Origin: a virus
Virus record (IMG/VR): IMGVR_UViG_3300036406_001149
Length of the DNA stretch: 64,000 bases
Direction: 5' to 3' (one strand)
A model generated the notes under the pieces. The model was not told where the DNA came from. It did not search any database and worked only from the letters and a program-made list of their open reading frames with translations. This document shows, piece by piece, positions 4,852-61,727 of the stretch. The translations under genes and the position numbers were made by a program. Position 1 is the stretch's first letter, and each line of letters opens with the position of its first letter.

Positions 4852-4855
4852 TACC

Positions 4856-20932: not shown

Positions 20933-20972
20933 TATTATTAATCAGTTTGATATTTTGTTAAACTTGCCTTGA

Positions 20973-20981
20973 GGTGTATAT
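20973..20981 (+). promoter_or_regulatory. Candidate late promoter GGTGTATAT
   Basis: 55 bp upstream of start 21028. Confidence 0.5.
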
Positions 20982-21027
20982 ATTATTATTATAATCGCTC
21001 TACGGAACATCCAGGATATAAGTAAAA

Positions 21028-22850: not shown

Positions 22851-22896
22851 CATATCACAAAACCATACGATATTACAACTTAAGAAATAATAACAT

Positions 22897-23367: not shown

Positions 23368-23378
23368 GAGAATAAATT

Positions 23379-24634: not shown

Positions 24635-24637
24635 TTT

Positions 24638-31635: not shown

Positions 31636-31944
31636 ATGGATAAAGACTATATACTATATCTAGCAACTAAAAAACTTGAAACCACAATGATAGGCTCTTT
31701 GGCCAGATTTGAGGATGCTTTTGGAAATTTGTGGGGACATAATAAAAACTATGATCAACCACTCACAGAAAGAGAAATAGAATACGAAAATATTTGGACA
31801 GATACTCGGAACAGAATTCTAGATCATGGCAATAAACAAATTAGAGCCATGGTTAATGATTTGAAAAAAGTGTTAAATGATAAACTACAAACTAAATATA
31901 CCTATAAATTTCACGTTAATAATCCCCAGGAGAATCAGGAATGA
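31636..31944 (+). CDS. 102-aa hypothetical protein
   Basis: ORF track; GAGGA RBS; coupled to neighbours. Confidence 0.6.
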   Translation: MDKDYILYLATKKLETTMIGSLARFEDAFGNLWGHNKNYDQPLTEREIEYENIWTDTRNRILDHGNKQIRAMVNDLKKVLNDKLQTKYTYKFHVNNPQENQE

Positions 31945-32825
31945 ATACTAGAACTTTTAGTGCCGTTGTAGACAATAAAGAAATCTGGCTTACTGCTAAA
32001 AGCCCATCTTTAAATGATCAGAGAGAAGCTCAAAAAATTTATAATCAAGCCTTTACAGACGCTATTAAGTCCAAGAGCGTGGTAAGAGCCAAGCTAGATG
32101 ACTTGCTCAAAGACCAGGGACTATGGAATGATGAAAAACAGGCTAAGTTTACAGAATTACAGAAAGAATTATTGGAAGGAGAGAAAAAGTTAGCTAAAGG
32201 AGGTATCTCTTTAAGAGAAGCTAGAGAATTAGCTTTGAGAATGAAAAAACTTAGAGAAGATATCAGAGATCTGATCAGTGTTAGAACATCTTTAGACAAC
32301 CATAGTGCAGAAGGTCAAGCAGATAATGCAAGATTCAATTATCTTGTATCCGTATGTGTGGTGTATAAAGATACTAATGATAAATATTTTAATAATTTAG
32401 AAGATTACCTAAATAGAGCAGATGACCCTGTAGCTATGCTAGGTGCTCAAAATTTGGCTAATATGCTCTACGGATTGGATAATGACTTTGAAAAGAATTT
32501 ACCAGAAAATAAATTTTTACATAAATATAAGTTTGTTAATAGTGAATTAAGACTTATAGACAAAAAGGGTAGGTTGATTGATGCTGATGGTAGGCTTGTT
32601 GATGACAGAGGAAGATACATAGACGAAGAAGGAAATTTTGTAGATAGATTTGGTAATAAGATGAGCGAGACTGGAGAATACATAGTTGATGCACAACCGT
32701 TTTTTGATGATGATGGAAAACCAGTTATCCCCACAGAAGAAGACAAGAAAACTAATGAAGCACCAAAAGACCCAGAGCCCGTTGTTCAACAACCTGTTGC
32801 TGACAACACAGTCAAAGAATCCTAA
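31941..32825 (+). CDS. Tail assembly chaperone-like protein with C-terminal DxxG repeats
   Basis: Directly upstream of the tape measure gene; coiled coil; LIDKKGRLIDADGRLVDDRGRYIDEEGNFVDRFG. Confidence 0.55.
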   Translation: MNTRTFSAVVDNKEIWLTAKSPSLNDQREAQKIYNQAFTDAIKSKSVVRAKLDDLLKDQGLWNDEKQAKFTELQKELLEGEKKLAKGGISLREARELALRMKKLREDIRDLISVRTSLDNHSAEGQADNARFNYLVSVCVVYKDTNDKYFNNLEDYLNRADDPVAMLGAQNLANMLYGLDNDFEKNLPENKFLHKYKFVNSELRLIDKKGRLIDADGRLVDDRGRYIDEEGNFVDRFGNKMSETGEYIVDAQPFFDDDGKPVIPTEEDKKTNEAPKDPEPVVQQPVADNTVKES

Positions 32826-32859
32826 GATTATTCTTCATTTATTGTCTTATATAATAATG

Positions 32860-32900
32860 ACACCATGTTTCTATTTAGTTACATGGTGTTGTTGTTTTTA
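32860..32900 (+). terminator. Hairpin plus T-rich tract just before the tape measure gene
   Basis: ACACCATGT-N12-ACATGGTGT then TGTTGTTTTT, ending about 15 nt before ATG 32915. Confidence 0.4.
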
Positions 32901-32914: not shown

Positions 32915-35900
32915 ATGGCTAGTACTTTTAACCTTACTGCACAACTTAACCTAAGAGGTCCTGCTAATATTAGAGCTGTTGTAGCTAATATTAGAAGACA
33001 AATAGGTACTATTGATGCTAATGTTAATATTGTTGTAAATCCTGCTGCGGTACGTAATTCTACAGCACTTAATACGGCACTAGTAAGACTAAACACCACA
33101 TTACAAACTACTACTGTTAATGCTACCAGTGCTGCCAATGCCATTAATGCATTAGTAGCATCAATGACTTCTGCTTCTAGTCTTAGACCGCCACCAGCTT
33201 TAGTCAATATGCCAGGAACACTAGCTTCTATAGGAGACGCTGCTAGACCGATTGGAACAACTATAGAAACAGCAACTGGTGAAATTACTAATTTCGGTAG
33301 ACAAGCAGGATTAGCTGTTAGAAGATTCTCAGCTTTTGCTGCAACGACAGGTATTATTTATTCGTTTACTAATGCTATTAATAGTGGATTAAAAGCGTAT
33401 ATAGAATTTGATAAACAATTAACAAGATTATCACAGGTAACAGAAGAGAGTCGATCAGGACTTACGGGCCTTACCAATAATATTACTAGTTTGGCTACAT
33501 CTCTTGGCGTTAGTTCATCAGAGCTAGCTAATGTATCAGTCACGCTTGCTCAGGCTGGTTTAAGTGCACAGGATACATCCAAAGCTTTAAAAGCGTTAGC
33601 TCTTAGTGCTTTGGCCCCATCTTTCGATCAATTAAATGATACCGTAGAAGGTAGTATCGCATTGATGAGACAGTTCGGTATTAGCGCAGGGGATTTAGAA
33701 GGAGCACTAGGCTCCATAAACTCAGTTGCTGCTAAATTTGCCGTTGAAGCTTCTGACCTTATTACAGCTATTCAAAGAACCGGTGGTGTGTTCGCATCAG
33801 CTAGTCGCGGAGTTAGTGAAGGCACAGATGCTTTAAATGAATTCTTAGCAATTTTTACCAGTATTAGAGCTACTACTCGTGAAAGCGCAGAAACTATTGC
33901 AACAGGTTTAAGAACTATTTTTACTAGAATTCAAAGAGCAGAAACTATAGACGCTCTAAAAGAATTCGGAGTTGTACTTACAGACCTTGAAGGTAAGTTC
34001 GTAGGACCATTCGTAGCCGTACAAAGATTAGCAGAGGGCTTAGGAAGATTAGATCCAAGAGATTTAAAATTCTCACAGATAGTTGAAGAGCTTGGAGGTT
34101 TTAGACAAATAGGTAAAGTGTTACCACTTATTCAACAATTCGCCACTGCTCAAGAAGCATTAGCGGTTGCTCAAGCTGGACAAGGATCTTTGGCGACTGA
34201 CGCAGCTAAAGGACAATTAGCATTAGCAGTACAAATTCAAAAAGTGAGAGAAGAGTTTGCAGCACTAATACGAAGTATCGGAGAAACAGATAGTTTCCGT
34301 ACAATGATTACACTAGGTTTGGATTTAGCTAGTGCTTTAATAAAAGTTGCTGACGCAACCAAAGGAGTGCTACCATTAGTAGGTTTGATGGCCGCATTCA
34401 AAGGTATTAGTGGTATTACGCAATTTGCTACTGGATTTGCTGGAGGACTTAGAGGCACTCCAGCTACACAAACCAGAAGATTTGCTACTGGTGGTTATGT
34501 TCCCGGTTCCGGAAACAGCGACACTGTACCAGCAAGATTGACTCCAGGAGAATTTGTAATTCGTAAAAAAGCTGTAGAAGCTATTGGCGTTGGTAAATTA
34601 CAGGCTTTGAATAGAAATGCTGGCGGACCAATATCCATTCAGAGATCTAGTATTGGCAGAGGACCTGTCCAGAAATTTAGTGTAGGAGGAAGCCCTGAAA
34701 CACAAACAAATAATGAGTTAACTACTCATAGAACTCATATAGGTCCTAAAATAGCATTATCTCCAAAACAAGCAAAACTAGCAAGATCCTATGGATACAG
34801 CCAGTCTTACGCAGCGTTAGGAGCAGAAAGACAAATTGACTTTGCTCCGTATCTCCCAGCAGTTTGGAATGAACAATGGAGAAGAGGCGGATCAAATAAA
34901 GGAGTTGCTCTTTCTGAAATCCTTAATTATGTTAATCCAAGATCACCAGAACAACTATTTGGTAGAGGAGGTATTCCTTCGTTACTTTATAATAAATTAT
35001 CTAGAAGAAACCAATTACTGCCTTTAAAAAATGTTTTCTTATCCGGATTAAGAGCAGCTCCTTCACTTATTCAAAAAGATTCTCAACTAGATTTTATCTT
35101 GCCAAATTATATTAAACCATTTTTAGATTCATTAGATCTATGGTCACCATTAGCTGAAAAACAAACCTTAACTATTCCTAGAAAATTTTCAGGAACTGAT
35201 GTTTTTAAGACCTTGTTAGACAAAGGAGTTCTTAAAACAAAAGTAAGAACTACTACACCAGGTATTCGTAAATCTTTAGCTCAGGATTTAGGAAATACTT
35301 TTGCCAATGGTGGTTCTATAAGAGCATTCGCTGAAGCAGGAGCAGTGTCTGCTACAGGTGGCAAGCCAGCAACTGCCTCGGAAATACTCAGGGTATTAGG
35401 AGCACAAAAAGCTGCGGCTGCTGGTGGAATATCTTCAACAGATGTATATACTTTACTTAAAAAACAAAAATTAACACCAGAACAGGAAGCAAGTAAAAAA
35501 GCTATTTTTGCAGAATTTACTAAACAACAAAATAGATTATCTGGAGCACAAAAGGCTAAAACCACCAGAGCAGAATCCAAAGGACTAGTATTTGGCGCTG
35601 CTGGTATGATGGGATCCGCATTTGCTCCTATTAATAAGACTATTAATTCTAATTTATTAAAATCTCCGGTGAGTGTGAGGATTGTTAGTGGACTTATGAA
35701 TCCAGATACAGCAGCTTCTCTGGACCAGTCTTTTTCTTCCTCTGTTAACAAAACTGCCAAACAAGCTGCTAAAAAAGTAATGGTGGCTGATATTTTATCT
35801 AATCTTGGTCTTGGTAGAGAATTGAATTTGGATTTTGACAGAACATTAGCTTTTGGAGCAGATAAAGTGTTGGCTGATCCAAAAACTCCAAAGTTTGCTG

Positions 35901-38900
35901 AGTTTGGAGATAGAACTAAAGTAGCAGCCGCTCTTAAAGGAGCAAAGCTTAGTTTATTAGGTAGAGAATTAGTTGGCATGGTTTCTAAAAAACCTGAATT
36001 ACTTAGTAGTCTAAGACTAATTACAGCTCGTCCATCATCAACATTAGACCTTGTTCATCAGTGGTTATCTTCTCAAGGATTACCTATTCCATTATCTCAA
36101 TTCAAGGGATTGGGAGGTCCAGGAGTTTCTGGTTCTCAAATAGCTAAACTTAAAGCGGAATTACTTAGTCCAGGATCAGTATTTGTTGATGATGATGTTA
36201 GAAATGTGAAAGCGGCCAAAGCTAGATCAACAGAAGGAATTACGTCATATAGGTATGGTAATAGAAAAAGTATAAAAAATACTAATGCTGATGCTACAGC
36301 CCAAGGAGTTATCTTTGAAAGAATGATCGAACAATTAGGAGGACCATCAGCTCTAAAAGGCCAAGGTTTAGATTTTCCTAATGGACTTAAGGGAGCAGCT
36401 AAATATTTTAATATACCAGGAAACATCCCCACTGATGCAAAAAGAACAATTAGTGGTCCATCAACAGTAGAGGATAATATTGTTACTTATCTTAAAAATG
36501 TTAAAGGATATAATCTTGGAGGAGTAGTTCAAAAATTTGCTTCTGGAGGCTTATCAAAACCTTTAGACACACTAGAAAGATACTACACAGACGCTACTCC
36601 AATTAATCTTGGTTTGTCTAATAGCAAATCATTAAATAAAGAGGACAGAAAACAATTAGCTTCAGATGTTAGAAATTTACGTAAACTTCGCACAGAAGCA
36701 CCAGAGGAATTATATACTTCAATATCTCGTAATGCATTTGATAAATTTGCTATGGATACTGGATTAAATAAAAATCCAGATATTCCACAAGGAACCAAAT
36801 TTAATGCTAAACAAGCATATTATGCTCCAGAAGTAGCTAAAATTATTGGTAAAACTTTTAGTCTTCCGGGATTCATTTCTACAAGTAAAAACTACGCAGT
36901 TGCCAAATCATTCTTAGATAATGCTCCAAGAGCAAAAGATAATTGGGCAGCTATGCTTACTGTAAAAACAAAAAAGAATGCTCAAGGAGTAGATGTTGCC
37001 GAACAATTAAAAGATCGTAAAATTAATGTAACCAAACAAGATATTAATCCAAGAACAGGCAAAACCGAAACGTTCTTCATGAAACAACCCAATGAAGAAA
37101 ACGAATTCATGCTTTCTCCTCGTTCTAAATTTAGAGTAAATACAGCAAAATACGTAGATTTAATGGGGAGACATAATCTTTGGGCTAATGTTCAGCAGTA
37201 TGCTACTGGAGGATCCGTTCAAGACACTGTTCCTGCTTTATTAACTCCGGGTGAGTTTGTAATTAATAAAAAAGCTGCTAGTAGTTTAGGATCTAGTAGA
37301 TTACATACTCTTAATAGAGCAGATAAAATTAAAGGATTTAACAAAGGAGGTCCGGTAGGAACCGTACAGAATTTCGCTGCTGGAGGTGCCGTACAAAGAT
37401 TTTTCTTTGGTGGTGGTCCAAGAGTTCCAGCTAGACCGGGAGCACAAGCTTCTTTTGAGAATTTACGCATTCCGGACGGCGTGGTAACAGGTCTTGGTCA
37501 GATGATAGATGCCCTAGAAGAATTAGGAGTTAGGTCTTCGGACTCAGCCAATATCTTGCGTAGAGGAGGACAAATTAGTGTAGAAGCTGCTACAAGAGCA
37601 TATGAAGCAGATATTTTAAGATTAAGAGTTTCTGGCGCACCAATGAGAACTGTTATAGAAGCTGAAACAAGACTTGCTAATATCAGACAGCAAGCAGCGG
37701 CTCAAGTCAGAGCTCAAAGACAATTAGCTGGAGTTAATGGTGGTCAATTAGAAACAATAGATTATGATGCACAGCAAAACTTACAAGCTATGATTCAAAG
37801 ACGTCAAGCAAGTGGTCGTGATCTTGATGATACTTTTATGAGACGAGCAGAAAGCGTTTCATATGGAAGAGCAGCTCAAAGAGCTGGATTATCACCAACA
37901 CAAACAGCAGGATTAAGCGGTAATGATCTTAGACAATATATTAATACTGCTATGGGAGATCCAAGAACATTTGAACAAATGAATAGAGCTTTTGAAACTA
38001 GAAGAAGAGCTGAATTAACAAGACAACTAACAGCAGAAGGTCGTTTCGGAGGTGATAGAAATAGAATTTTAGAAGAAGCCAGAAGAATGGCTCAACAAGA
38101 AGCAAGGATTCGTCGAGACACACTTAACGAAACTAGAGGAGCATCTGGTCCGGGTCGTACTGGAATAGGTTCTCAAGCTATGATGACAGGAGCTTTTGGT
38201 ATTCAAATGTTTGGGGGCATATTAGCACAAGGTATAGACAGGAAAAGTAGTGCAGAATCAGCCGGTCTTGCAGCAGGTTTAGAAACAGCCACAACCGGAT
38301 TAGGCACAGGATTAATGCTATATAGTCAATTGGATGAAATGTCTAAAGGATTATCTAACGTTAATACAACATTAGGCAGATTCGGGTCGGGATTAACAAG
38401 AGTTGCAGCTCGATTAACTGCTCTTGGAGCAGCTGCTTTTACGATTGTCTCGACCATTAAAGATGTTGTTAACGCAATGAATCAATTTGATATTGATCTA
38501 CAGAAACAAAAGCTTGAATTTAGTATGAAGGGAGTTGAGCAAGAATTTGAGAGATTAAGAAAAGCTGCAAATAATATAGGATTTGATAGACTAAACAGTG
38601 CTCTAGAATCTGCTTCGAAAGCTTTCGCTTCAGCTCTAGACAGAGTAAGTAAACAATCCACTATTACTTTTACTAATCTATTAGACTACATATATACCTC
38701 TATGCCATATTTTGGCACAGGAGATACTGAAGGATTTGATAAAAGATCTGAGATTGAGAGACTTGGTGGTAAAAAAGCTTATTATGCTTCTCGCAGCGAC
38801 GAAAGATCACTAGCTGATGAATATAAAAAAATTATACCACAACTTGCACAAGAACAAGCGGCTCTTGGTAAAGCTTTGTCAGATTCTTTACTTGAAAGCT

Positions 38901-41900
38901 TCAAAGAGAGAGCTTATAAAGGAGAATCTTTTCAAGATATTGTTAATGATCCTAATTTCAAGAGTTTTGCTGAGTCTTTAGCTAATGCAGACGCGGTTAT
39001 TCGTCAGAGGATCCTTGAACTAGAAAATAGCGGATTAGACGGAGCTGTCATAGAGAAAGAAAAAAAACGCATAATAGACGCAGCTGCTCAAGAAAAAACA
39101 AGACAGCAGGTATTGATTACCATCAGAGACAAAGAAGCTAAATCCGTACAAAGATTTACTGCTGTATATACAGGATCTTTAATTCGTATGTTTAGAAACA
39201 TGGAACAGGCAATAGCAGCAACATCGTTCTCTTTGCAACAAATGCAACAAAGCATAGATGGTAATATAGCAGCTTTAAACGGACAAGCTTCCTTACAGTC
39301 AACAGAATTAGGATTGTCTAATGTATTAAATAATCCAAGATCATATAACGATTTTCAAGGATCACAAGCTCGTGCAACAGCAGGTGGTTTTTTTGGACCT
39401 TCATCTAATATAGTTCAATCTCTATTGTCTGTTGGAGAAACAGCAGAATCTACAGTAATGAAAACTGTAAATTCAGTATTGGCACAAAATCCTGAAGCAA
39501 ATGACGAAGTTATCTCCATGAAAATTGATGCTAATCTTAGACAAGCTCTAAAAGATCTAGGATTGCCACCTGAGTTATCAGAAAAAATAGCAGAACAAGT
39601 TGGTAGAGCAGTAGGAGAATTAAGAAAATCTGGAGAAGACAAGGTGTCTTTTTCTGAAATTCAAGATAAAGTAGCTTCATTAAGTAAAGTTTTAGATACC
39701 GCACAGAATGTTCAGGGAATAGTTAGTAAAGCTTTAGAAAGTTTTGGAGCTGCATTAGATTCTTATAGAAACAATATTAATAAAACTATTGACCTGGAAA
39801 TATCTCGTAGAGATAAATTGCGTAGAGCTGACGATATCTTAGTTAATGCTAATGTAGAATTAGCAAAAGTACTAGGAAAAACTATTGATTTAGATCAGTC
39901 CAGACAAAGATTACAAAATAAAACTAAGAGTTTTACTGGAGGTTCTGTTGATCCTAGAGAAATTTTTAATTCTATTTTGGATTTAGATGCTCTAAGAAGA
40001 AGACAAGAAAGTTCACGAGCACAAGTAGCAGAAAGAGGTCCAGCTGGAGTTCCTGATTTTGCTAGACTTAGTAACAACGTGAAAGATACAAGTATCGCTT
40101 TAAGAGAAAATATTAGTGGCTTAAAACTCTTAGCGGAAAGTACTGAGTTTGCATCAGATGCTATGCAAAAAATGCAAGACGCTCAACAAAGAATAGGGGG
40201 CAAGGTTTCATTTATAGAAAAACTTGTAACATCTACTCCAGAAGAATTAAGTGGTCTTAATATGTCATTTGTTAGACTACAACGGAATATGAATGGTCAA
40301 ATTAATACTATTAATAATAGTATAGGAGCGCAAAAAGCTTATCGTGAAGCTTTAAACAATGGAGCCAATGTTTTTGAAGCTATGAAATCTGCACAAGCAG
40401 CATTTGCCAATGAAAGAAAAGATACTTTAGGAGTACTACAAGACTTATTGCCTTTCTTGGGAGACAGTAAACAAGGATCTAATGTTAGAGCAAATGTATT
40501 AGAAAGTATGTTGCAAGAGTCTGGTATCGGCATAACTCCAATGTTTATGGACGTTTTAAATAGTTTGCGTAATCCAGAAGTTGATCCGGCTGTTTCCGCA
40601 GCACTAGCTTATTATAACGAAGCTAATGCATTACAAGCACAAGCTAACAGATACTTAGCAAACTTAGAAGGAACACTTGCACAAGATATTGCAGACAGAT
40701 CTGCAAAAGCACTTAGTTTAGCTTTATCTAAAACACAATTAACTTTCGTTAATGCCCATTTAGCAGATATAGCTGCTGGTATTAATAGACTAGCTCCTTT
40801 GCAGCCTCAAGGCAAAGCTTCAGGAGGTATTATCTATGCAGCAGCAGGACAAATGGTTGATTTTAGTGCCAAAGGAACAGACACTGTTCCCGCCATGTTG
40901 ACTCCCGGAGAATTTGTTGTTAATAGACAAGCTACTAGTAGAAATAGAGGACTATTAGAATCTATAAATAGTAATAAATATAGTAAAGGAGGAAAAGTTA
41001 GATATTATGATAAAGGAGGTTTCGTACATGATCTTGGTGATGAAACTATCTTTACTAAATCAGCTAGACAAAGTACTACAGAAATTATTGATCTAAATAC
41101 ACCTGCTGCAATAGCAGGTTTAACAAAAGCAAAGTCTGCTTTATATCAAGCTCCTACAGTATACACGTTTTTGAATAGCCCTAAACAAACTCCAAAAGCA
41201 GATGATAATACATTAACTCTAGACCTTAAGGATCTAGAGCCAGATGCCGGTACCAGAGTAGTACCGGGTATGGGACCAATATTAATGAAATATACAGATG
41301 AAGAAGGAGCAACAAAAGTAGATTACCAAATATGGGATCGTGCTGAAGCAGCTCTTTCTAGATTTGCTGGTATTAAAGATGAAAAGAGCTTTTTTCATAC
41401 TGATGGCTCAGACAGTTTGAGTACTATTAAGCTAAATGAACTAGAGCTAGAAAAATATAAGAAAAAAGCAAAAGATAATAATATTGATTGGTCATTAGCT
41501 AAATATAATCTAGATCTTAATAATTTCGGATCTATGCCTTTTCCATCAGATTTTACTGGAGATGGAGATAAATTTGCTACAACAATAGTAAAAGGTAAGT
41601 CATTAGGTATTGCAAAAGAAAGACAGGCTGGAGCAGGCCCGGCATTATCTGATGAAAGAAAAAATATGTATAAAATTTGGAAACCAAAAAGAGGAGGAGA
41701 AACTGACGTTGTATCCACTAATTTCCCTAACTTTGCTATGGGAACACCGTATGCTTCTACTGATTTCGAACAAAAAAGAGAGGCTGGTACCTCTTTGGTT
41801 ATGTCAAATTGGGAAAAAGACGTTATTGCTTTTGATAAGTTGGGAGCACTAAAAGACTCTAACGACGAATCATACCAGAAATATGAAAATACTGCTAATT

Positions 41901-44900
41901 TTTTAAGAGCTCCAGCATTTGACGATAAGGGAAAAGTAGATGCAAAAACACTAGAAATTCAAAATCAATTATCTAAATTATATAATGGATCAGTAGGAGA
42001 AATTTTTCCTGGAGCAGATGTTATTAGTAGATATTTCGATCAGCTAAGAATTACTGGAACAGCTAATAGTTTGGCTATTTTTAATCCTGGAGCTGTACCG
42101 GCACTCAACAAAACTATAGAAGAATTGGCAGCAAATCCTATTATAGCAAAAAATAGAGATTTGATGTTTAGTGGAGCTGGACTAAAAGCAACAGATGCTG
42201 CTGGAAATGCTCTTCCTTTCGTTGACCCAGGTCCACCACAAGGCATCCGTATCAAAGAGCTTGATGATCTGGGAGCTATTCGTCAACGATCTAAAGCTTT
42301 CCCCTATGTTATTAATGGTAAATTAGATGATCTAGACCCTGTATTAAGACAACAACTAGAAGCACAGCTTGCTGCTGCTAATCCTGGCGATATTAAGATG
42401 ACAAGACTACCAGAGGAAAATCTGGCAGTACCAGTTCCTGCTGCATGGGGATTGCAACAGTTACTTGGCGGTAATCCAAATATGGATTTAAAAATAGCAT
42501 ATGATGAATGGGAAGGCAAATTATATGATCCAATTAATAAACAATTCGAACCAGCAGCTACTAAGCTATTCTTGCCATCAAACACAGGAGGAACCCTATT
42601 TGAAGGTATTAATCCCGCAATACTAGATAAGCGTAGAATAGGTTTATTTCCTGGCGCTAAATATACACCAGCAGATATTAATAAGGCTTTAAATGCTGTA
42701 GCATTACCAAACGCTGATGTACAAAAATATATTAATAGTATATTAACAGATCCTACAAAACCCGACGGTGCTGCTAAAACTAATTTACAAAAGGCTATGA
42801 TAGGACAATTAGATTCGTCATTTATCAAAAGCTTAGAGATGGTATTTCCTGGTTTGGATACCCTAGTTAGTCCAGTATCTAATCAGCCTTTCGGTATCGA
42901 AATGGGAGAGCATATTTTGTCTCAAATAGACAGAGTAAGAGCCAGAGCTGGTAATCAAGCTGATTCTATAGCCAATAAGGGATTTAAAAATCTTACTGTT
43001 GATGATCAAAATATACCAGAAGCTTTAAGAAGAATGTCAAAATCTGCTCTACAAATTTTTGGAAGAGCAAGAGTCCCAGGAACTAGAAATGGATGGTTAG
43101 CATCTTATATCGGTAAAGTTCCTAATTTACAAAAAATTAATGCTGGACAAGCTAAGAATATCTCAGGATATGCTGCTAATGTAATGGAAAACTTTGGAGG
43201 TTATTTATCATCAATTAGTAACAGCATCAGAAGACCTGATCAGTTTCAATATCTTAAAGAGGTCTATACTGTGGCTTCTGGTGCAGCTAAAGCTTTTGCT
43301 GGATTAGCATCCGGAGATACAGGATTATTAGCACAATTTAATATGGTAGGCTCTGACTACATGAGTTTATTTAGAACTCTTGGCGGAACTATGTTAATGT
43401 CCAGACTTTCTGGTTTACAACTGTCTCCAGATTGGCAAAATATATTAGGAGCACAAATACAGAATGGATTAGTTAGAACAGTATCTCCAAATGGTACTTT
43501 AGGCAGACAGCAGATGGTAGATGCTATTCCAACAGATCTTATGGGTTTAATTAAACTATTATTTAATCCATATAATGAATTTGCTGATGTTAATACTAGA
43601 AAAGATCTAATGGACAAGTTCGTTAATGATATTTCTAGTTTCAAAGGATCGAACGGATTGCCTTATTTTGATCAATTTACTCTTAAATATTTAGTAGATA
43701 GAGTTAATGTACTTAAAGAATGGTATGGGGGTAATCCTGGATGGGTTGGTCAAGACTTTTTATTCGATAAAGTAGGTAATCCCGATAATGTTGCAAGATC
43801 TAATACATTTCAAGCTAGTTTAGCAGCTAATTTACCTCTCAGATCACAAGCTAATATTGCCCACACTACTTTAGGTTTGGCAAAAACATTTGGAGAGTTA
43901 CCTGATCAAAATTGGTTTGGTGGTAGAGTTGTACAAGGATTCCAAACAGGAGGTGTTGTCAACTCTGTTGCTGCACAATCTGGTGGTATGATTAATTTTC
44001 AGCCAAGAGGAACAGATACTGTGCCAGCAATGTTGACGCCCGGCGAATTTGTTATTAATAGACAGGCAGCTCAAAGTAATCTTCCGTTATTACAACAAAT
44101 TAATAGTGGTAAAGCATACAGCAGAGGAGGAGTAGTATATGCTCAATTTGGAGGAGAAATAGACCAGAATGTCGGAGTAGGTACAGATGAACAAATGATG
44201 CGTGATCAAGAAATGAAAGCTGGTTACGAAGCAAAAATAAGAAGAGAAAATAGAGCTAATAAAATAGCTACAATCACAGAAGCTATGGAAAAATATCCCC
44301 AATTAATACTAGATCTACGAGATACTGTTCGTCCAGTTACAGTCTTTGACATGATGTCAACAAACAAGTTCAAAACAACCACTAAATTTGATGAAGCTAT
44401 TGCTAGAGTTAGATTACAAGATCCTGTATTAGCAAAAGAATTATTTAGTCATAGATTAACAGTACCAGGAATAGTCTCTTCATTACACGAAGAATTAGAT
44501 AATTATAAAAGAATTTCTGGCTTTGACGGCAAATATGGAACATGGGATGATACTGAATTCTTAGATGATATATCTATGACTCTTGCTGGACTAGGATTGA
44601 TACCAGCTATAGGTAATATTTTTGATTTGGCTAGTATTCCTATAGATCTTTTAAGAGGAGATACAACATCAGCGGGACTAAGTTCTCTTTCTTTAATAGA
44701 AGGTGTTGGACAAGCGGCGGGTGCTACTAAGATGGCTAATTTGGCAACAGCATCTACTGCTGGTATGGCTGGTATTTTTGCAACCAGAGCTGCTAATAAA
44801 GGAATTAATTACGAAGGAGCAAGTAATATATTTGATTTAATAAATAAGATTAAAGCTAATTCAAATCTTGACCCTGCATCTAGAAGACTTAAAATTTTAG

Positions 44901-47900
44901 ACACTCTACAAACAGCTTTATCTGGTAAAACTAATTCAGCAAAAGCAACAGAAGCATACGAAAAAGCGATAACAGACCTGAGGATATTGGGGCAAGGTCA
45001 TCCAGATTCCAAAGGCATAAATGATCTAATTCAATTATTAGATAAAACAGCATATCCGGCTCAAGGAAGTAAAGGAGCAGGCATAGGCAAATATTTATTT
45101 AATAAAACAACAGCTACAGCAGCAGTTGCCGTAGCGGCACTTGCATACTATGCGAGTCTGGATAAGAAAAATGTAGACCAAGCAACCCGCAAACAAGCTT
45201 CAGAAGAAGAGATCGAGGCATCTATACCTGATGTATCTGGAAAACAAGTTACAGCACAAGAGAGTGATGATGTTAGAAAAGGTGTAGCCACACCAGAAGT
45301 GAAAGAAAAGGTTGAAAAATGGAAAGAAAAAACAGCATCACCGGAAGATAAAGATGCTGCGGAAAAACTAGCAGCTATTGAAAAGATTATAGAAAGATAT
45401 CCTGTAAATGATATAAAAGGAAATCCAAGTCGTATTGGTCCCGTAAAACAAAAAACTTTAGAGAAAACTTATCCAGATTTATCACAAAGACTAAGAGTAT
45501 ATGAACAAACAGAAAGAGACTTAAAAGACGATCCCAGTCTTGTCCATAGAGCTAGAGGAGGTATGATTTATGCTAATAATGGCATGATGATTCCTTATTC
45601 TCCTCGTGGAACTGATACTGTTCCTGCTATGCTAACTCCCGGAGAGTTTGTTGTAAACCGAGCATCAACCCAGGCAAACCTACCTTTATTACAAGCTATT
45701 AATAATAATCAAGTTATTAGTAGCATTAAAGGTTTTACTAATGGTGGAATTGTTTATGCTGCTGACGGAGGCACAATCCCAACTAAACCAGACGGTTCTG
45801 CTGATACTAATTTTAATGCTCGTAAAGCTAAACGAACAGCATATTTACAAAGGCAGATAGAAAAAGAAGAAAAAGCAGAATTTATTGATAAACTTGGCAT
45901 TCTTTATAATGATACTACAGATAAACAAGATATAATAGAAGCTCTTAAAAAACAAAGAGATTATAAATCAAAAATTGATTACTATCTAAGACAATTTAGT
46001 GTTGACAATCAACTAGGAATACGACTTAAAAGATTTCCAAGAATTAGCGAAGCATCAAAATCAATTCTAGCCAAAGAACAACAGCCAAAAGCTAATCCTT
46101 TTGATCAAGGTCAGCAACCAGCAGCAACTCCACAATCACTCTCAAGAGGCGGAGTAATTTATGCTGCCGAAGGATTTGATCCATCAAGACCATTAAACCC
46201 CATGATGAATCGTCATGGAAAGGGTCCAACTTCAACACTGCCCCAACAACCTATTACTAATTTTGATAGTGAAAAGTTGGCCGAAGAAGGAAAAGCTTTT
46301 ATATACGGAGCTGCTAAGTCCGTACTTCCAGGTTTAGCTGGTTTGGGTGCTGGAGTTTTAGGATTACCCACTACAGGTTTTGGTGGATTTGCTTTAGCTG
46401 GCTTAGCATCAGCGGCTACATATCAAGCTCAAGAAAATTATTTGAATGCTTTGGCTCCAGAAACAAATAGACAGATGAAAGATACCACCGAGGAGCACTG
46501 GCAGTCCTCATTATTAGGATCAATGGTTGGTGGTTTTGGTGCCGATAGGATAGGTCGTAATTTACTTGGTTCTTCTATAAAAAATACTGTAAGAATACCC
46601 TCTCTACGTCCTAATAATAATGCTTCTGTAAGACCAGATATGAAAAGTGCTGGTCAAGAAGCTTTGGAAGAATTCTCTTTAAGAAGTAGACCAGCTATGA
46701 GTGCTCCATTAGATGTGCCAAAAGCTTCTAAAACTATGTCTCTTTTTCATGCTAGCAATACTGGTTTAGAAAACTCTATTTTAAAAAGTTTTCAAAAAGA
46801 AGGTGGTAAAAGTAGTATTGCAAAGGGGTATGGGCAAGGTCAAGGATTGTACACCTACACTAGTAGGGAAGCAGCTGAAAAACACGCAAGAAGCATTATT
46901 AAAGGAAATATGCTTACAGGAGCAGATGCTCGTGGCAAGCCCATGATTGTTAAATTTGATGAAACATTAGATCCATCAAGATTTGATTTAGACTATGAGC
47001 TGAATGCTGGATATGTTACCAAATGGTTATACGATCATTTTGATGATGTACAAAAGATATTATCTGATCAAAAAAATCCGATGTTGCTAGAGAGAATGAT
47101 GGATCCTGGAGCTATGGGTAGAGAAGCACAAAAAGGTATAAGAACTAGTGTTCCAACAGCTATTGGTGGTCTTGATTTCCTTGAGCAAAGAGCTACTGGT
47201 TTAGCTCCACGAAAATGGATCTATGGTTCTCAAACAGATTACACTACTAGAGATGGAGAAATACTGTCTAGAATTATGTCGGCTGTTGGCAAGAGAGATC
47301 CTAAGCTATTAGCAAAATTTAAAGAAGGATTTTTTGAAACTATGCCAGCCGAATCGGCTATTAAATATACTGGTTCAGACAATTTAATGCCTAGTAATAT
47401 TGACGTATTAGCTAAAGCTAGAGGTGGAATAATTTATGCTTCAACAGGAACATTAGTAAACTACCAGCCTCGTGGTACAGACACAGTACCCGCCATGTTA
47501 ACTCCCGGCGAGTTTGTGGTTAATAGAGCAGCAACTCAGAAACATTTGCCTCTATTAAAATCTATTAATAGTGGTGGAACAGCAACTGGGTATAGTAATG
47601 GAGGACCAGTATATCTAGCAGCAGGAGGAGTAGCTGATTTCGAAGATGCTCAGTTCGTACCATCAGCTACCGCAAAAAATAGAGCACAAGCCAAAGCAAA
47701 AGCACAGCAGAAACAACAAGAAAGAAAACAAGAGATAGAAAAAAATAAACAGGCTAGACAAAATCAAGATGTAGATAGATTAGAGGGCATCACAGAAGTT
47801 AGAGTAAAAAATGGAGTAGATAAAATTTCTGCTCTGACTGTTAATGAAGTTAAAGCATTATTTAAGAATAAAGATTTTATTACCTCACTAGAGAATAATA

Positions 47901-50308
47901 GTTCACTAAATCTAGGTAATCTTAAGAATTTACCACCAACAGTAGCTCAAGAAATATTTAAACAATTAAGCGCTAATCGTTTAGCTTGGATAACTGATTT
48001 TAATTTTGATTCACTAAACTCTCTGGACCAATCTTCCGCTAACCTGTTCAAAGAACACATGGCTAGTCGTATTTCTGCAAAGGGTTTAACAGAACCCCCT
48101 ATGTCATTAGTCAAATATTTTGTTGATAATGCTCTTGAAGATTCCGGAGGTGGTTCATCCACAGATCTGTCGTCTCCAACTATTGGGGGTCGTTTCCTTA
48201 CAGGCATTGATTTAACACCAATGATAAAAGAGTATTATAGTCAATTAGATCCAGACAAATTTGGACAACAATTTGGTCAAGATAAATTAAAATTAGAAGA
48301 TATGGAACAAACATCAGCTAGTAGTATTTTTAGTGAATTATCATCTGGTAATTTTACTAATCCTTATGTATCCTCTAATTTAGCTAAAATTAAGACCATT
48401 ATACAGAGAAATCCTGAGCAAAAAGATGATTTAGAAAATATTATTGCCCGAACGGGAGCATTAGATCTTAATGGTCTTTCTAAAATAGAGGATTCTGCAT
48501 TAAAAGATTTATTAGATTTTTGTGTAGATCAGAATTTGCCCATAGGTGCGGTATCATTTGGAGCAGATAAATTTAATGGTCAGTTAATAGATCTAATGTC
48601 TAGTTATAGAGATATTATATCATTATTTATTTATGGAACTGATATTAATCAATCTCTGGCTGATGGTATAGGAAGATCAACTCTTGGTGATATACATCTA
48701 CAAGAGATGCAGAATATGTCATTGGGAACAGCAAGATCATTATCATTATTTAGTGGTAAATTAAGTATGCATAGTCTAGAGTCTGTAGATGAGGCGGCAT
48801 TGAGAATTTTTGCAGAAGCTGGAACAGAGATTTTTCCCCGAGAATTATTAGCTCAACTAGCCAATAAACCACCAGTACAAAATAGAGCAAATGGAGGTTT
48901 AATTTATGCTAGTCAAGGAACACTAGTCAATTATCAGCCTCGTGGTACCGATACTGTTCCCGCCATGTTAACTCCGGGTGAATTTGTTATTAACAGAGAA
49001 GCAACTCAACAGAACCTAGGATTATTACAAGCTATTAATAAAGGACAAGATATAACAAATCATTTATCAGATGGAGGGATAGTTAATCCTATCTATAGAC
49101 CGGGAGGCGGACCAGTAGGTATGAGTTACAAAGAAATATTAGCTGAACGAGAAGCTAATTATAAGAAACAACAAGCAGACAGAAGACAGGCCTATAAGGA
49201 TCAAAGAGGTTTAAATCAAGCAGGATTGAGTAGATTAGCTATGTTCATAGTAAATCAAATTAATACTAATCCTAATTTATTTGAAGAACTTAATAACGAC
49301 GCTATAAAAGAGGATTTATCAGCTGACACTATTGCTCAAAATTATATTCAAGAATTCCAAAAAATTGCAGACCCAGCACAAAGATATAATACAGCTAAGG
49401 GTAGATATGTTCAACAGACTAATCGCTTTAATTATCTAAAAACTATAATACAAAATACAAAGGGGGCTTTAACACAACTTAAAGATAAAGATAAAAACTA
49501 TAAAATACCACAAAGAGGTAATATTACCCTAGGCACGATCCTAGACACCCAATTCCAAACTGCTTCACAAGAAGCCTCTATCATGGATCAAGTTTGGCAA
49601 AAAATTGGTAATACTTTCCCAGAATTTAAAAATCAAGATCCAACACGAGGTCAACAATTTGTTCCTCCAGCAGCCATGATGAACAAGGGAGGAGTTGTTT
49701 ATGCTAGTAATGGCATGTTGGTTAACTATCAACCACAAGGATCAGATACTGTACCAGCAATGCTAACTCCTGGTGAGTTTGTTGTTAACCGAAATGCAGC
49801 ACAAAAACATTTAGGCTTATTACAAGGAATAAATAATGGATATTATTCTGGTGGAGGAAGAGTCAAATATTTGGCTGATGGTACTCCAGGTACAGATGTA
49901 TTACAACAGAATATCGCTCAACTTAGTTCCGTTCTGCAACTAGGGGCCGAAAGTATTAATGCCTCATTGACTGGTTTGTCAACAACGCTTAACGGCATAA
50001 GAGAAAATCTATCTGGCGGTAATACGGACAATCGTGTTAGTGGTGTATCTAATAATACAAACAACAACCCTATTGCTGCTATAAATGCTCTTGGGACTAA
50101 ATTAGACCAATTTATCGAACGCCTACAAACAGCATTGCCACCAGTAATTAATGTTAAATTAACTCAGGATCAACCTATAAATGTTACAATTAATGGAGCA
50201 AATGTCTTGCAAAATCTTCTGTCAGGACCAATTGGTGGTATCATTCAGAATGCTATTCAATCAGCTTTTGATGCTCGTAGTAGAACTAGCGAAGGGTCTT
50301 CTTCATAA
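32915..50308 (+). CDS. Giant tape measure protein (5797 aa) carrying multiple cargo domains
   Basis: N-terminal TP901-type tape-measure core (EFDKQLTRLSQVT...LAQAGLSAQD...AAKFAVEASDL); position after tube and chaperone genes; eight TPGEFV modules; HAD, ART and LRR-like motifs inside. Confidence 0.88.
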   Translation: MASTFNLTAQLNLRGPANIRAVVANIRRQIGTIDANVNIVVNPAAVRNSTALNTALVRLNTTLQTTTVNATSAANAINALVASMTSASSLRPPPALVNMPGTLASIGDAARPIGTTIETATGEITNFGRQAGLAVRRFSAFAATTGIIYSFTNAINSGLKAYIEFDKQLTRLSQVTEESRSGLTGLTNNITSLATSLGVSSSELANVSVTLAQAGLSAQDTSKALKALALSALAPSFDQLNDTVEGSIALMRQFGISAGDLEGALGSINSVAAKFAVEASDLITAIQRTGGVFASASRGVSEGTDALNEFLAIFTSIRATTRESAETIATGLRTIFTRIQRAETIDALKEFGVVLTDLEGKFVGPFVAVQRLAEGLGRLDPRDLKFSQIVEELGGFRQIGKVLPLIQQFATAQEALAVAQAGQGSLATDAAKGQLALAVQIQKVREEFAALIRSIGETDSFRTMITLGLDLASALIKVADATKGVLPLVGLMAAFKGISGITQFATGFAGGLRGTPATQTRRFATGGYVPGSGNSDTVPARLTPGEFVIRKKAVEAIGVGKLQALNRNAGGPISIQRSSIGRGPVQKFSVGGSPETQTNNELTTHRTHIGPKIALSPKQAKLARSYGYSQSYAALGAERQIDFAPYLPAVWNEQWRRGGSNKGVALSEILNYVNPRSPEQLFGRGGIPSLLYNKLSRRNQLLPLKNVFLSGLRAAPSLIQKDSQLDFILPNYIKPFLDSLDLWSPLAEKQTLTIPRKFSGTDVFKTLLDKGVLKTKVRTTTPGIRKSLAQDLGNTFANGGSIRAFAEAGAVSATGGKPATASEILRVLGAQKAAAAGGISSTDVYTLLKKQKLTPEQEASKKAIFAEFTKQQNRLSGAQKAKTTRAESKGLVFGAAGMMGSAFAPINKTINSNLLKSPVSVRIVSGLMNPDTAASLDQSFSSSVNKTAKQAAKKVMVADILSNLGLGRELNLDFDRTLAFGADKVLADPKTPKFAEFGDRTKVAAALKGAKLSLLGRELVGMVSKKPELLSSLRLITARPSSTLDLVHQWLSSQGLPIPLSQFKGLGGPGVSGSQIAKLKAELLSPGSVFVDDDVRNVKAAKARSTEGITSYRYGNRKSIKNTNADATAQGVIFERMIEQLGGPSALKGQGLDFPNGLKGAAKYFNIPGNIPTDAKRTISGPSTVEDNIVTYLKNVKGYNLGGVVQKFASGGLSKPLDTLERYYTDATPINLGLSNSKSLNKEDRKQLASDVRNLRKLRTEAPEELYTSISRNAFDKFAMDTGLNKNPDIPQGTKFNAKQAYYAPEVAKIIGKTFSLPGFISTSKNYAVAKSFLDNAPRAKDNWAAMLTVKTKKNAQGVDVAEQLKDRKINVTKQDINPRTGKTETFFMKQPNEENEFMLSPRSKFRVNTAKYVDLMGRHNLWANVQQYATGGSVQDTVPALLTPGEFVINKKAASSLGSSRLHTLNRADKIKGFNKGGPVGTVQNFAAGGAVQRFFFGGGPRVPARPGAQASFENLRIPDGVVTGLGQMIDALEELGVRSSDSANILRRGGQISVEAATRAYEADILRLRVSGAPMRTVIEAETRLANIRQQAAAQVRAQRQLAGVNGGQLETIDYDAQQNLQAMIQRRQASGRDLDDTFMRRAESVSYGRAAQRAGLSPTQTAGLSGNDLRQYINTAMGDPRTFEQMNRAFETRRRAELTRQLTAEGRFGGDRNRILEEARRMAQQEARIRRDTLNETRGASGPGRTGIGSQAMMTGAFGIQMFGGILAQGIDRKSSAESAGLAAGLETATTGLGTGLMLYSQLDEMSKGLSNVNTTLGRFGSGLTRVAARLTALGAAAFTIVSTIKDVVNAMNQFDIDLQKQKLEFSMKGVEQEFERLRKAANNIGFDRLNSALESASKAFASALDRVSKQSTITFTNLLDYIYTSMPYFGTGDTEGFDKRSEIERLGGKKAYYASRSDERSLADEYKKIIPQLAQEQAALGKALSDSLLESFKERAYKGESFQDIVNDPNFKSFAESLANADAVIRQRILELENSGLDGAVIEKEKKRIIDAAAQEKTRQQVLITIRDKEAKSVQRFTAVYTGSLIRMFRNMEQAIAATSFSLQQMQQSIDGNIAALNGQASLQSTELGLSNVLNNPRSYNDFQGSQARATAGGFFGPSSNIVQSLLSVGETAESTVMKTVNSVLAQNPEANDEVISMKIDANLRQALKDLGLPPELSEKIAEQVGRAVGELRKSGEDKVSFSEIQDKVASLSKVLDTAQNVQGIVSKALESFGAALDSYRNNINKTIDLEISRRDKLRRADDILVNANVELAKVLGKTIDLDQSRQRLQNKTKSFTGGSVDPREIFNSILDLDALRRRQESSRAQVAERGPAGVPDFARLSNNVKDTSIALRENISGLKLLAESTEFASDAMQKMQDAQQRIGGKVSFIEKLVTSTPEELSGLNMSFVRLQRNMNGQINTINNSIGAQKAYREALNNGANVFEAMKSAQAAFANERKDTLGVLQDLLPFLGDSKQGSNVRANVLESMLQESGIGITPMFMDVLNSLRNPEVDPAVSAALAYYNEANALQAQANRYLANLEGTLAQDIADRSAKALSLALSKTQLTFVNAHLADIAAGINRLAPLQPQGKASGGIIYAAAGQMVDFSAKGTDTVPAMLTPGEFVVNRQATSRNRGLLESINSNKYSKGGKVRYYDKGGFVHDLGDETIFTKSARQSTTEIIDLNTPAAIAGLTKAKSALYQAPTVYTFLNSPKQTPKADDNTLTLDLKDLEPDAGTRVVPGMGPILMKYTDEEGATKVDYQIWDRAEAALSRFAGIKDEKSFFHTDGSDSLSTIKLNELELEKYKKKAKDNNIDWSLAKYNLDLNNFGSMPFPSDFTGDGDKFATTIVKGKSLGIAKERQAGAGPALSDERKNMYKIWKPKRGGETDVVSTNFPNFAMGTPYASTDFEQKREAGTSLVMSNWEKDVIAFDKLGALKDSNDESYQKYENTANFLRAPAFDDKGKVDAKTLEIQNQLSKLYNGSVGEIFPGADVISRYFDQLRITGTANSLAIFNPGAVPALNKTIEELAANPIIAKNRDLMFSGAGLKATDAAGNALPFVDPGPPQGIRIKELDDLGAIRQRSKAFPYVINGKLDDLDPVLRQQLEAQLAAANPGDIKMTRLPEENLAVPVPAAWGLQQLLGGNPNMDLKIAYDEWEGKLYDPINKQFEPAATKLFLPSNTGGTLFEGINPAILDKRRIGLFPGAKYTPADINKALNAVALPNADVQKYINSILTDPTKPDGAAKTNLQKAMIGQLDSSFIKSLEMVFPGLDTLVSPVSNQPFGIEMGEHILSQIDRVRARAGNQADSIANKGFKNLTVDDQNIPEALRRMSKSALQIFGRARVPGTRNGWLASYIGKVPNLQKINAGQAKNISGYAANVMENFGGYLSSISNSIRRPDQFQYLKEVYTVASGAAKAFAGLASGDTGLLAQFNMVGSDYMSLFRTLGGTMLMSRLSGLQLSPDWQNILGAQIQNGLVRTVSPNGTLGRQQMVDAIPTDLMGLIKLLFNPYNEFADVNTRKDLMDKFVNDISSFKGSNGLPYFDQFTLKYLVDRVNVLKEWYGGNPGWVGQDFLFDKVGNPDNVARSNTFQASLAANLPLRSQANIAHTTLGLAKTFGELPDQNWFGGRVVQGFQTGGVVNSVAAQSGGMINFQPRGTDTVPAMLTPGEFVINRQAAQSNLPLLQQINSGKAYSRGGVVYAQFGGEIDQNVGVGTDEQMMRDQEMKAGYEAKIRRENRANKIATITEAMEKYPQLILDLRDTVRPVTVFDMMSTNKFKTTTKFDEAIARVRLQDPVLAKELFSHRLTVPGIVSSLHEELDNYKRISGFDGKYGTWDDTEFLDDISMTLAGLGLIPAIGNIFDLASIPIDLLRGDTTSAGLSSLSLIEGVGQAAGATKMANLATASTAGMAGIFATRAANKGINYEGASNIFDLINKIKANSNLDPASRRLKILDTLQTALSGKTNSAKATEAYEKAITDLRILGQGHPDSKGINDLIQLLDKTAYPAQGSKGAGIGKYLFNKTTATAAVAVAALAYYASLDKKNVDQATRKQASEEEIEASIPDVSGKQVTAQESDDVRKGVATPEVKEKVEKWKEKTASPEDKDAAEKLAAIEKIIERYPVNDIKGNPSRIGPVKQKTLEKTYPDLSQRLRVYEQTERDLKDDPSLVHRARGGMIYANNGMMIPYSPRGTDTVPAMLTPGEFVVNRASTQANLPLLQAINNNQVISSIKGFTNGGIVYAADGGTIPTKPDGSADTNFNARKAKRTAYLQRQIEKEEKAEFIDKLGILYNDTTDKQDIIEALKKQRDYKSKIDYYLRQFSVDNQLGIRLKRFPRISEASKSILAKEQQPKANPFDQGQQPAATPQSLSRGGVIYAAEGFDPSRPLNPMMNRHGKGPTSTLPQQPITNFDSEKLAEEGKAFIYGAAKSVLPGLAGLGAGVLGLPTTGFGGFALAGLASAATYQAQENYLNALAPETNRQMKDTTEEHWQSSLLGSMVGGFGADRIGRNLLGSSIKNTVRIPSLRPNNNASVRPDMKSAGQEALEEFSLRSRPAMSAPLDVPKASKTMSLFHASNTGLENSILKSFQKEGGKSSIAKGYGQGQGLYTYTSREAAEKHARSIIKGNMLTGADARGKPMIVKFDETLDPSRFDLDYELNAGYVTKWLYDHFDDVQKILSDQKNPMLLERMMDPGAMGREAQKGIRTSVPTAIGGLDFLEQRATGLAPRKWIYGSQTDYTTRDGEILSRIMSAVGKRDPKLLAKFKEGFFETMPAESAIKYTGSDNLMPSNIDVLAKARGGIIYASTGTLVNYQPRGTDTVPAMLTPGEFVVNRAATQKHLPLLKSINSGGTATGYSNGGPVYLAAGGVADFEDAQFVPSATAKNRAQAKAKAQQKQQERKQEIEKNKQARQNQDVDRLEGITEVRVKNGVDKISALTVNEVKALFKNKDFITSLENNSSLNLGNLKNLPPTVAQEIFKQLSANRLAWITDFNFDSLNSLDQSSANLFKEHMASRISAKGLTEPPMSLVKYFVDNALEDSGGGSSTDLSSPTIGGRFLTGIDLTPMIKEYYSQLDPDKFGQQFGQDKLKLEDMEQTSASSIFSELSSGNFTNPYVSSNLAKIKTIIQRNPEQKDDLENIIARTGALDLNGLSKIEDSALKDLLDFCVDQNLPIGAVSFGADKFNGQLIDLMSSYRDIISLFIYGTDINQSLADGIGRSTLGDIHLQEMQNMSLGTARSLSLFSGKLSMHSLESVDEAALRIFAEAGTEIFPRELLAQLANKPPVQNRANGGLIYASQGTLVNYQPRGTDTVPAMLTPGEFVINREATQQNLGLLQAINKGQDITNHLSDGGIVNPIYRPGGGPVGMSYKEILAEREANYKKQQADRRQAYKDQRGLNQAGLSRLAMFIVNQINTNPNLFEELNNDAIKEDLSADTIAQNYIQEFQKIADPAQRYNTAKGRYVQQTNRFNYLKTIIQNTKGALTQLKDKDKNYKIPQRGNITLGTILDTQFQTASQEASIMDQVWQKIGNTFPEFKNQDPTRGQQFVPPAAMMNKGGVVYASNGMLVNYQPQGSDTVPAMLTPGEFVVNRNAAQKHLGLLQGINNGYYSGGGRVKYLADGTPGTDVLQQNIAQLSSVLQLGAESINASLTGLSTTLNGIRENLSGGNTDNRVSGVSNNTNNNPIAAINALGTKLDQFIERLQTALPPVINVKLTQDQPINVTINGANVLQNLLSGPIGGIIQNAIQSAFDARSRTSEGSSS
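34541..49783 (+). repeat. Eight intragenic copies of the DTVPA(M/L/R)LTPGEFV module
   Basis: TPGEFV codons start at 34541, 37244, 40901, 44036, 45635, 47501, 48971 and 49766. Confidence 0.95.
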
Positions 50309-61716: not shown

Positions 61717-61727
61717 AAAGGAATAGT

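Follow-up and report, generated by a model that had tools for sequence, protein, structure and literature searches.

Tail tape measure proteins fill the lumen of the phage tail and leave it ahead of the DNA. Among the closest described counterparts of the protein analysed here are the rulers of lambda (gpH, processed to gpH* and gpHC; PMC12617516) and of T5 (pb2, processed to pb2* and pb2C; PMC10038345), each of which is cut once, beside a motif that we call the joint. Both share with our protein a hydrophobic Gly-rich stretch, the joint motif itself (FATGG..GEFV or R↓AEGGMMY..GE, the arrow marking the cut) and a C-terminal docking tail. The subject of this work is a gene at positions 32915-50308 (+ strand) of a 64,000-nucleotide stretch of viral DNA (the window, IMG/VR record IMGVR_UViG_3300036406_001149). 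It encodes a tape measure protein of 5,797 aa with eight joints and up to 1,139 aa between them, whereas lambda and T5 have one joint and release one small C-terminal fragment. Furthermore, T5 carries a cell-wall enzyme as its cargo and lambda carries no cargo, while the cargo of the 5,797-aa ruler looks cytoplasm-directed.

We propose that a constant backbone, consisting of a TP901-type N-terminal core, a block of ~1,100 aa and a hub-docking C-terminal tail, is interrupted in this protein by cassettes, each of them fenced by a joint of ~75 aa, and that short FAxGG mini-joints subdivide some of the blocks. The ruler would fill the lumen of a very long tail and would exit ahead of the DNA, carrying the enzymes into the host. 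The joints would serve as flexible linkers at which the chain may be cut after assembly or on ejection, and the cut, if any, would be placed as it is in T5 pb2, with a basic or aromatic residue before it and A/S-x-GG after it. To this explanation as a whole, that is a backbone ruler with swappable enzymes which are delivered to the host and with joints that are possibly cut, we assign a probability of about 55%; the odds that several of the joints are cut are roughly even.

The gene is a single open reading frame (ORF) with a GGAG ribosome-binding site 12 nt 5' of its ATG. The N-terminus of the product matches PF10145 (aa 190-393, E 8e-23, 81.8 bits against a cut-off of 33.2) and TIGR01760 (98.1 bits against 28.8), and several PHROG tape-measure families match as well, so the initial annotation of the stretch, which had named a tape measure protein of 5,797 aa, was confirmed and the protein can be assigned by sequence to the TP901 type. 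Since the identical protein is present on 11 contigs, which come from four sources and of which the longest measures 188,671 bp, mis-assembly or an artificial fusion of reading frames was ruled out. The source is an uncultured jumbo phage of ~189 kb. No cultured close relative was found, the nearest terminases being at most ~25% identical; relatives of the N-terminal core were absent from 185,579 species genomes, and a counterpart of the ~1,100-aa block was not found in cultured phages.

The signature TPGEFV stands at aa 543, 1444, 2663, 3708, 4241, 4863, 5353 and 5618, with spacings of 901, 1219, 1045, 533, 622, 490 and 265 aa and with 179 aa after the last copy. These are exactly the eight modules described initially, the only difference being a tail given there as 180 aa. 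Alignment A1, made from 81-aa windows around the eight sites, extends the module beyond its first definition: the core, (T/S)DTVPA(M/R/L)LTPGEFV(V/I) followed by a short helix ending in L..(I/L)N, stands as it was defined, but the whole joint takes up ~75 aa, with a Gly-Gly 12-26 aa upstream (26, or 12-17) and with one or two further Gly-Gly downstream of the helix. Joint 1 (aa 518-593, 34466-34693) is of a short, lambda-like type (RFATGG-x16-GEFV), as is joint 2 (aa 1418-1494, 37166-37396) in its length, and joint 3 (aa 2634-2706, 40814-41032) is of a long type (KASGGIIYA ... TDTVPAMLTPGEFV). They are followed by joints 4 (aa 3679-3751, 43949-44167), 5 (aa 4212-4290, 45548-45784), 6 (aa 4834-4908, 47414-47638), 7 (aa 5324-5402, 48884-49120) and 8 (aa 5588-5660, 49676-49894). 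All these parts, like the blocks below, are on the + strand. Three isolated Gly-Gly mini-joints (aa ~799, ~1207 and ~4412) split blocks 1 and 5. In the predicted model the joint is disordered except for one helix; it is resolved in none of the solved structures, for in those of lambda, T5 and Douge the ruler is visible only in its last 32-42 residues.

Nineteen columns of A1 are invariant over the eight copies, while at the DNA level the copies share only 62-79% identity, and in the 14-codon core 195 synonymous codon-pair differences stand against 30 non-synonymous ones. It follows from this divergence and this ratio that the copies are old, and the eight joints are under strong purifying selection at the protein level with saturated synonymous sites. 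The same figures rule out chance or recent duplication as the origin of the joints.

The profile derived from A1 was searched against 1.84 billion representatives and matched 17,797 proteins at E<=1e-3, 925 of them at E<=1e-30. The best 150 of the 17,797 matches were compared as relatives, which gives 151 proteins together with the 5,797-aa ruler. They are 935-7,872 aa long and carry 3-11 joints each, so that the module, whose copies the initial annotation had suggested counting in this way, proved to be widespread. In the general layout of the class the first joint stands at about aa 520 and the last ~140 aa before the C-terminus; the distance from joint to joint has a median of 849 aa. The same N-terminal core was found on 43 IMG/VR contigs of up to 229 kb. 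The class is a large, so far uncultured group of giant tape measures; in the literature, the coverage of which was incomplete, no account of tape measures with repeated joints or with arrays of cassettes was found. Variant joint types occur in some of the relatives (P0002-P0151, consensus of alignment A2), namely VPALVSNGEAYV and DSIGP..LPVGSFIIR, beside the DTVPAMLTPGEFV type, which means that the joint family itself has diversified.

The blocks between the joints differ strongly in their distribution. B0 (aa 1-517, 32915-34465), which contains the PF10145 and TIGR01760 matches and ends in a hydrophobic, Gly-rich part, is common to 121 of the 150 relatives, and B2 (aa 1495-2633, 37397-40813), a conserved block that is rich in helix-forming residues and contains one hydrophobic segment (aa 1830-1849), to 97. 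The conserved C-terminal tail B8 (aa 5661-5797, 49895-50305) was detected in 25 by BLAST at 1e-5, and its cluster comprises 75 of the 151 proteins. On this sequence comparison B0, B2 and B8 form the constant backbone and the other blocks are variable cassettes. B2 is likely to supply the main ruler portion and to form the channel, and comparison with lambda, T5 and Douge (PMC12617516, PMC10038345, PMC13033339) suggests that B8 docks in the hub at the tail tip. Among the cassettes, B1 is present in 59 of the 150 relatives, in parts, its first segment B1a (aa 594-798, 34694-35308) being rare and variable and found in only 1-3 of them; B3 (aa 2707-3678, 972 aa, 41033-43948) is present in 28, B5 in 18, B7 (aa 5403-5587, 185 aa, 49121-49675) in 12, B4 (aa 3752-4211, 44168-45547), a rare variable block, in four, and the nearly unique B6 (aa 4909-5323, 47639-48883) in two. 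B7, here the penultimate block, takes a late position in ~10-12 relatives. B5 starts with B5a/b (aa 4291-4607, 45785-46735), which holds the third mini-joint and a Gly-rich hydrophobic stretch at ~aa 4470-4545, and is completed by B5c (aa 4608-4833, 46736-47413). In total, 269 clusters resulted from the 861 blocks of the 151 proteins, with 178 singletons among the 567 internal blocks; the earlier impression that the blocks of the ruler are mutually unrelated was borne out.

The exchange of cassettes can be followed directly in the closest comparisons. Relative P0003 (5,762 aa) agrees with the 5,797-aa ruler at 93-100% identity in most blocks and at 83% in B4, but has an unrelated segment of ~195 aa in place of aa ~4600-4833, and the right edge of this replacement is the exact start of joint 6. 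P0012 and P0078 also contain the replaced cassette, B5c (72% identity), and more distant copies of it (32-40%) lie in block 1 of seven further relatives, its place being block 5 or block 1 depending on the relative; outside giant proteins its homologues are nearly absent (one 242-aa match). Over the whole set (high-scoring segment pairs of at least 150 aa, P0003 excluded) 51% of 912 homology end-points fall in joint zones, which make up 15% of the length. The comparison for block swapping between relatives, as proposed initially, was therefore positive, and these alignments show that cassettes are exchanged and repositioned at the joints. Since the DNA of the joints has diverged, they are poor recombination substrates, and exchange at these places more plausibly reflects selection for viable junctions than it explains why the motif is conserved.

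At least three of the variable segments carry enzyme folds, in agreement with the early notice of enzyme signatures in several blocks. B1 was modelled by AlphaFold2 with 20 relatives, and the part B1b (aa 818-1198, 35366-36508), a helical subdomain followed by a HAD-fold domain (~aa 948-1120), was obtained with high confidence (predicted local distance difference test, pLDDT, 80-95). Foldseek and VIA-align searches with it returned HAD phosphatases throughout, with dozens of HAD entries, and the top structural match was the 3'-phosphatase domain of T4 polynucleotide kinase (Pnkp; Z 11.9, root-mean-square deviation 2.7, 124 residues). The DxDxT motif reads LDFDRTL and the distal acidic motif FVDDD; DxDxT is nearly invariant among the relatives, as is the DDD; on the basis of the model B1b is assigned as a HAD-fold phosphatase-like domain. 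The adjacent B1c (aa 1212-1417, 36548-37165), with FAxGG mini-joints on both sides, matches PF03496 with 25.9 bits (gathering cut-off 23.4), and its FISTS (STS) and E-N-E (E-x-E) motifs are kept in 11 related copies, which by sequence makes it an R-S-E type ADP-ribosyltransferase (ART) domain of uncertain activity. The swappable cassette B5c (LFHAS ... GLYTYTS) has, with moderate confidence, an ART-superfamily fold in its model: about 40 of the 50 best structural matches are ART-fold proteins, including Tpt1/KptA, PltA, PARP16, the pertussis and diphtheria toxins, DarT, Arr and RES, and its atlas neighbours include DUF3990, PARP and RES clusters. The structure prediction of blocks proposed at the outset, carried out for B1 and B5c, gave HAD and ART folds. 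The destination of the cargo would be the host cytoplasm, because NAD-dependent and phosphatase activities act only there.

No family was obtained for B1a, B3, B4, B6 and B7 in Pfam, NCBIfam, PHROG, PDB sequence and atlas searches, PDB sequence searches with B1, B3 and B4-B6 gave nothing usable, B1a and B3 received no fold either, and when B3 and the putative tube protein were searched by features in the atlas, only uncharacterised viral clusters came up. As a Pfam scan of 13 relatives detected only PF10145 and one EF-hand, most of the cargo lies outside known families. A peptidase family was not found in the 5,797-aa protein at E<=0.1 (Pfam, NCBIfam, PHROGs), large parts of which are without a fold match. 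The initial view of the ruler as an effector carrier is upheld as far as exchangeable enzyme-fold cargo on a ruler is concerned, but not for every block, since B0, B2 and B8 are backbone. The layout does not fit a polymorphic toxin system: the variable cassettes are internal, the C-terminus is conserved, and the next ORF is 936 aa long, with no immunity-like small gene.

The joint can be compared with the processing sites known in lambda and T5. Residues 730-784 of gpH contain FATGG, 16 residues, GEFV..., L..L.. and ATGG; the eight-copy profile matches gpH 753-784, and the FATGG-to-GEFV spacing is the same. The lambda motif was thus given correctly in the initial annotation, and by this sequence match the joint is the motif present once in gpH. 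In PHROG tape-measure families the joint lies mostly near the C-terminus, as had been said of ordinary tape measures, but in some families it is in the middle of the protein. Lambda gpH loses the ~14-kDa C-terminal peptide gpHC "from the glycine-rich region" (PMC12617516), upstream of FATGG, and the motif therefore lies at the N-terminal end of gpHC, just downstream of the cut; only residues 818-849 are resolved, bound to gpI. That T5 pb2 is processed, also stated earlier, is borne out by the cut mapped after R1127 (PMC10038345), in the context ..FVPR↓AEGGMMYPG... This cut is three residues before the joint-opening GG and 15 residues before the GE motif of T5, and it falls between the first two positions of the long-type joint logo (n=305 in the class), [K/R 47%, F/L 33%]-[A/S 69%]-x-G-G-[VILM]-[IV]-Y-A. 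Because the lambda and T5 cuts lie upstream of the GG, any cut in the ruler is expected at the N-terminal edge of a joint and not at GEF, near which (R/GEF) it had been placed originally.

This has consequences for the more extensive model of the initial annotation, in which all eight modules are cut at or near GEFV to give about nine free proteins in the tail. Such a model agrees with the finding that the motif of the lambda/T5 maturation region is repeated where domains meet, with the cassette-like cargo and with the parallel to peptidase-processed polyvalent proteins (PMC5512222). Nevertheless we regard it as quite improbable, since neither the T5 cut, 15 residues before GE, nor the lambda cut, upstream of FATGG, is at GEF, and B0, B2 and B8 are backbone and not cargo. 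A cut after the first joint would separate the 517-aa core from the rest, and the internal sites are shielded in the tube. An autoproteolytic signature is also missing from the joints: the Thr/Ser that precedes DTVPA varies, and in lambda both the Asp and the Thr are missing at this place. Two other ideas about the nature of the joint were rejected. The likeness of a mycobacteriophage joint (SDSMLAR..NGEF) to GDSMxP..GD of LexA/signal peptidase suggested an S24/S26 peptidase, but there is no Pfam match at E<=0.1 and no conserved Lys partner, and lambda is without the Ser/Thr; a double-glycine leader was discarded as the T5 cut precedes the GG.

Several observations weigh against our proposal of enzymes delivered on a ruler whose joints may be cut. 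The alignment of the module with the cut regions of gpH and pb2, suggested initially, held for gpH, but pb2 did not match the full joint profile and shares only the opening GG-hydrophobic-Y part; the proposed P1 position is K/R in only 47% of the cases. An external protease would not be able to reach joints deep in the assembled tube, and neither the ruler nor the genes beside it yielded a peptidase domain. Regarding the cargo, the position of the canonical Arg (Y-R-G) in B1c reads LYTS or LYSG, here and in all relatives, with an Arg 4-5 residues further downstream in 9 of the 12 copies, and it is this displacement that makes the activity uncertain; the B5c model is mediocre (mean pLDDT 51, core 60-87), and the Z values of its ART-fold matches do not exceed 7.5 (7.5-4.5).

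A further objection comes from the Thermus phage P23-45, whose 5,002-aa ruler gp96, with a fused virion RNA polymerase and an 800-nm tail, is uncut in virions and delivers the active polymerase to the host through the tail (bioRxiv 10.1101/2022.12.01.518664). Since gp96 is full-length in virions, a giant enzyme-bearing ruler need not be cut. It is similar to the 5,797-aa protein in being a giant ruler that brings a cytoplasm-acting enzyme through the tail, but it differs in having no joint motif, one N-terminal enzyme and no swappable array. Our ruler could likewise be an uncut carrier that is ejected whole and sets a very long tail, with joints as flexible, fold-insulating spacers and with enzymes acting while tethered. 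This agrees with the full-size and still active gp96, with the modelled disorder of the joint, with the lack of a protease found nearby, and with TM4, where deletion of the enzyme motif shortens the tail proportionally (PMC1796659). We consider it possible though somewhat unlikely, because a plain spacer leaves unexplained the 14 nearly invariant residues kept in eight copies while synonymous change is saturated, as well as the retention of the same motif in thousands of tape measures; gp96 itself is without the motif, and lambda and T5, the two phages with a proven cut, are cut right beside it. The ruler of TM4, which carries the motif, was reported as probably processed, and among the four phages with data cutting tracks the presence of the motif (lambda, T5 with the opening part, and TM4, versus P23-45).

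The TM4 deletion also means that embedded domains count as ruler, that is toward the tail length (PMC1796659). At 0.15-0.16 nm per residue, and on the assumption that every residue counts in the way it does in lambda, TM4 and P23-45, the 5,797-aa protein would correspond to a tail of ~0.87-0.93 micrometre.

The strong conservation of the joints points to a sequence-specific partner or chemistry, and two further explanations start from this. The joint could be a self-contained processing element that cleaves itself or is set off by assembly or ejection. It would then also make the cut that converts lambda gpH to gpH*, and the ruler would be a string of released, exchangeable host-directed enzymes, a tail-lumen counterpart of the head-packaged polyvalent proteins in a whole clade of jumbo phages; we hold this to be unlikely. 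Alternatively, the joints could be repeated docking sites for chaperones, the inner wall of the tube or other ruler chains, which would keep the very long chain in register while the tail is assembled, cassette exchange being a side effect. A common binding partner would be in line with the conservation, and two ORFs (102 and 294 aa, 31636-32825, + strand) directly upstream of the ruler gene occupy the position of tail assembly chaperones, by position only, as they have no family match. However, lambda has a single joint, at the tip end, although its chaperones reportedly coat the whole ruler, and in our protein the joints are at domain borders with irregular spacing (265-1,219 aa), which makes repeated docking highly improbable.

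Among other described systems, the proposed ruler with swappable enzymes is similar to the polyvalent proteins (Iyer et al. 2017, PMC5512222), in which unrelated effector domains, often ARTs, are joined in one injected polypeptide, domains are shuffled between relatives and processing into units was proposed. The 5,797-aa protein has, as they do, a number of unrelated effector-type domains within the range of 2-15 (HAD, ART and a second ART fold, besides the unassigned blocks). Polyvalent proteins are head-packaged or conjugation-delivered (in the context of MuF, portal, N4-type polymerase or relaxase) and usually contain a metallopeptidase (MPTase), whereas here the carrier is a tail tape measure and no peptidase was found; tape measures are never mentioned in that paper (0 occurrences of 'tape'). 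In cultured phages a tape-measure gene with the joint has one or two copies of it (269 places in 190 records). TM4 gp17 has one, at aa 702-766, directly before the Mt3 hydrolase motif, and Douge gp16 (PDB 8zdo chain S) has two, at aa 963-1034 and 1412-1464. These mycobacteriophage rulers have the same joint directly beside an embedded cell-wall hydrolase region, but their cargo acts on peptidoglycan and is not arranged in a cassette array. Sle1-type effectors of actinobacterial contractile injection systems (PMC13277306) also place exchangeable domains on a tape-measure scaffold; these are however bacterial injection particles, with one C-terminal functional domain and no reiterated joint reported.

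If the proposed explanation is true, phages have a route through the tail lumen, besides that from the head, for proteins of host takeover or counter-defence in the first minute, and the class would hold a large untapped repertoire of ADP-ribosyltransferases, phosphatases and proteins of other kinds, as a third of the internal blocks in the 151 representatives are singletons. The shared joint ties the class to the problem of the lambda gpH cut, its place and its mechanism, and mapping the T5 site onto the joint yields a residue-level prediction for lambda and T5. TM4 and Douge are cultured phages in which it can be asked whether internal joints are cut, and the class predicts phages with tails near one micrometre.

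With respect to the surroundings of the gene, terminase, portal and major capsid genes are situated 5' of it. The flanking tail genes have no family matches, and it is gene position alone that fits a tail module; a tail sheath family was not detected, and the phage probably has a non-contractile tail. Between the second chaperone-position ORF and the start of the tape measure gene there is a 9-bp inverted repeat at 32859-32899 (ACACCATGT ... ACATGGTGT), the loop of which is 12 nt long and after which comes a T-rich run. A simple terminator scan did not call it, the loop being too long, but it could attenuate read-through into the giant gene. The five large ORFs 3' of the tape measure gene have no Pfam family in any of them. 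The region 56329-64000 holds an ORF of 1,795 aa and then an open-ended one of at least 757 aa, the latter matching repeat domains common to many PHROG virion, baseplate and fibre families. Four ORFs at 18092-25555 carry Mtd_N (major tropism determinant N-terminal) and/or Gly_rich_2, one of them also fn3, and are located in an island of higher G+C (41-46% versus 31-38% around); they may be fibre or decoration genes of other origin, or targets of a diversity-generating system. Finally, the left end of the window (1-6400), with minus-strand genes, negative GC skew and higher G+C (39-43%), looks like a separate transcription unit, which is probably early.

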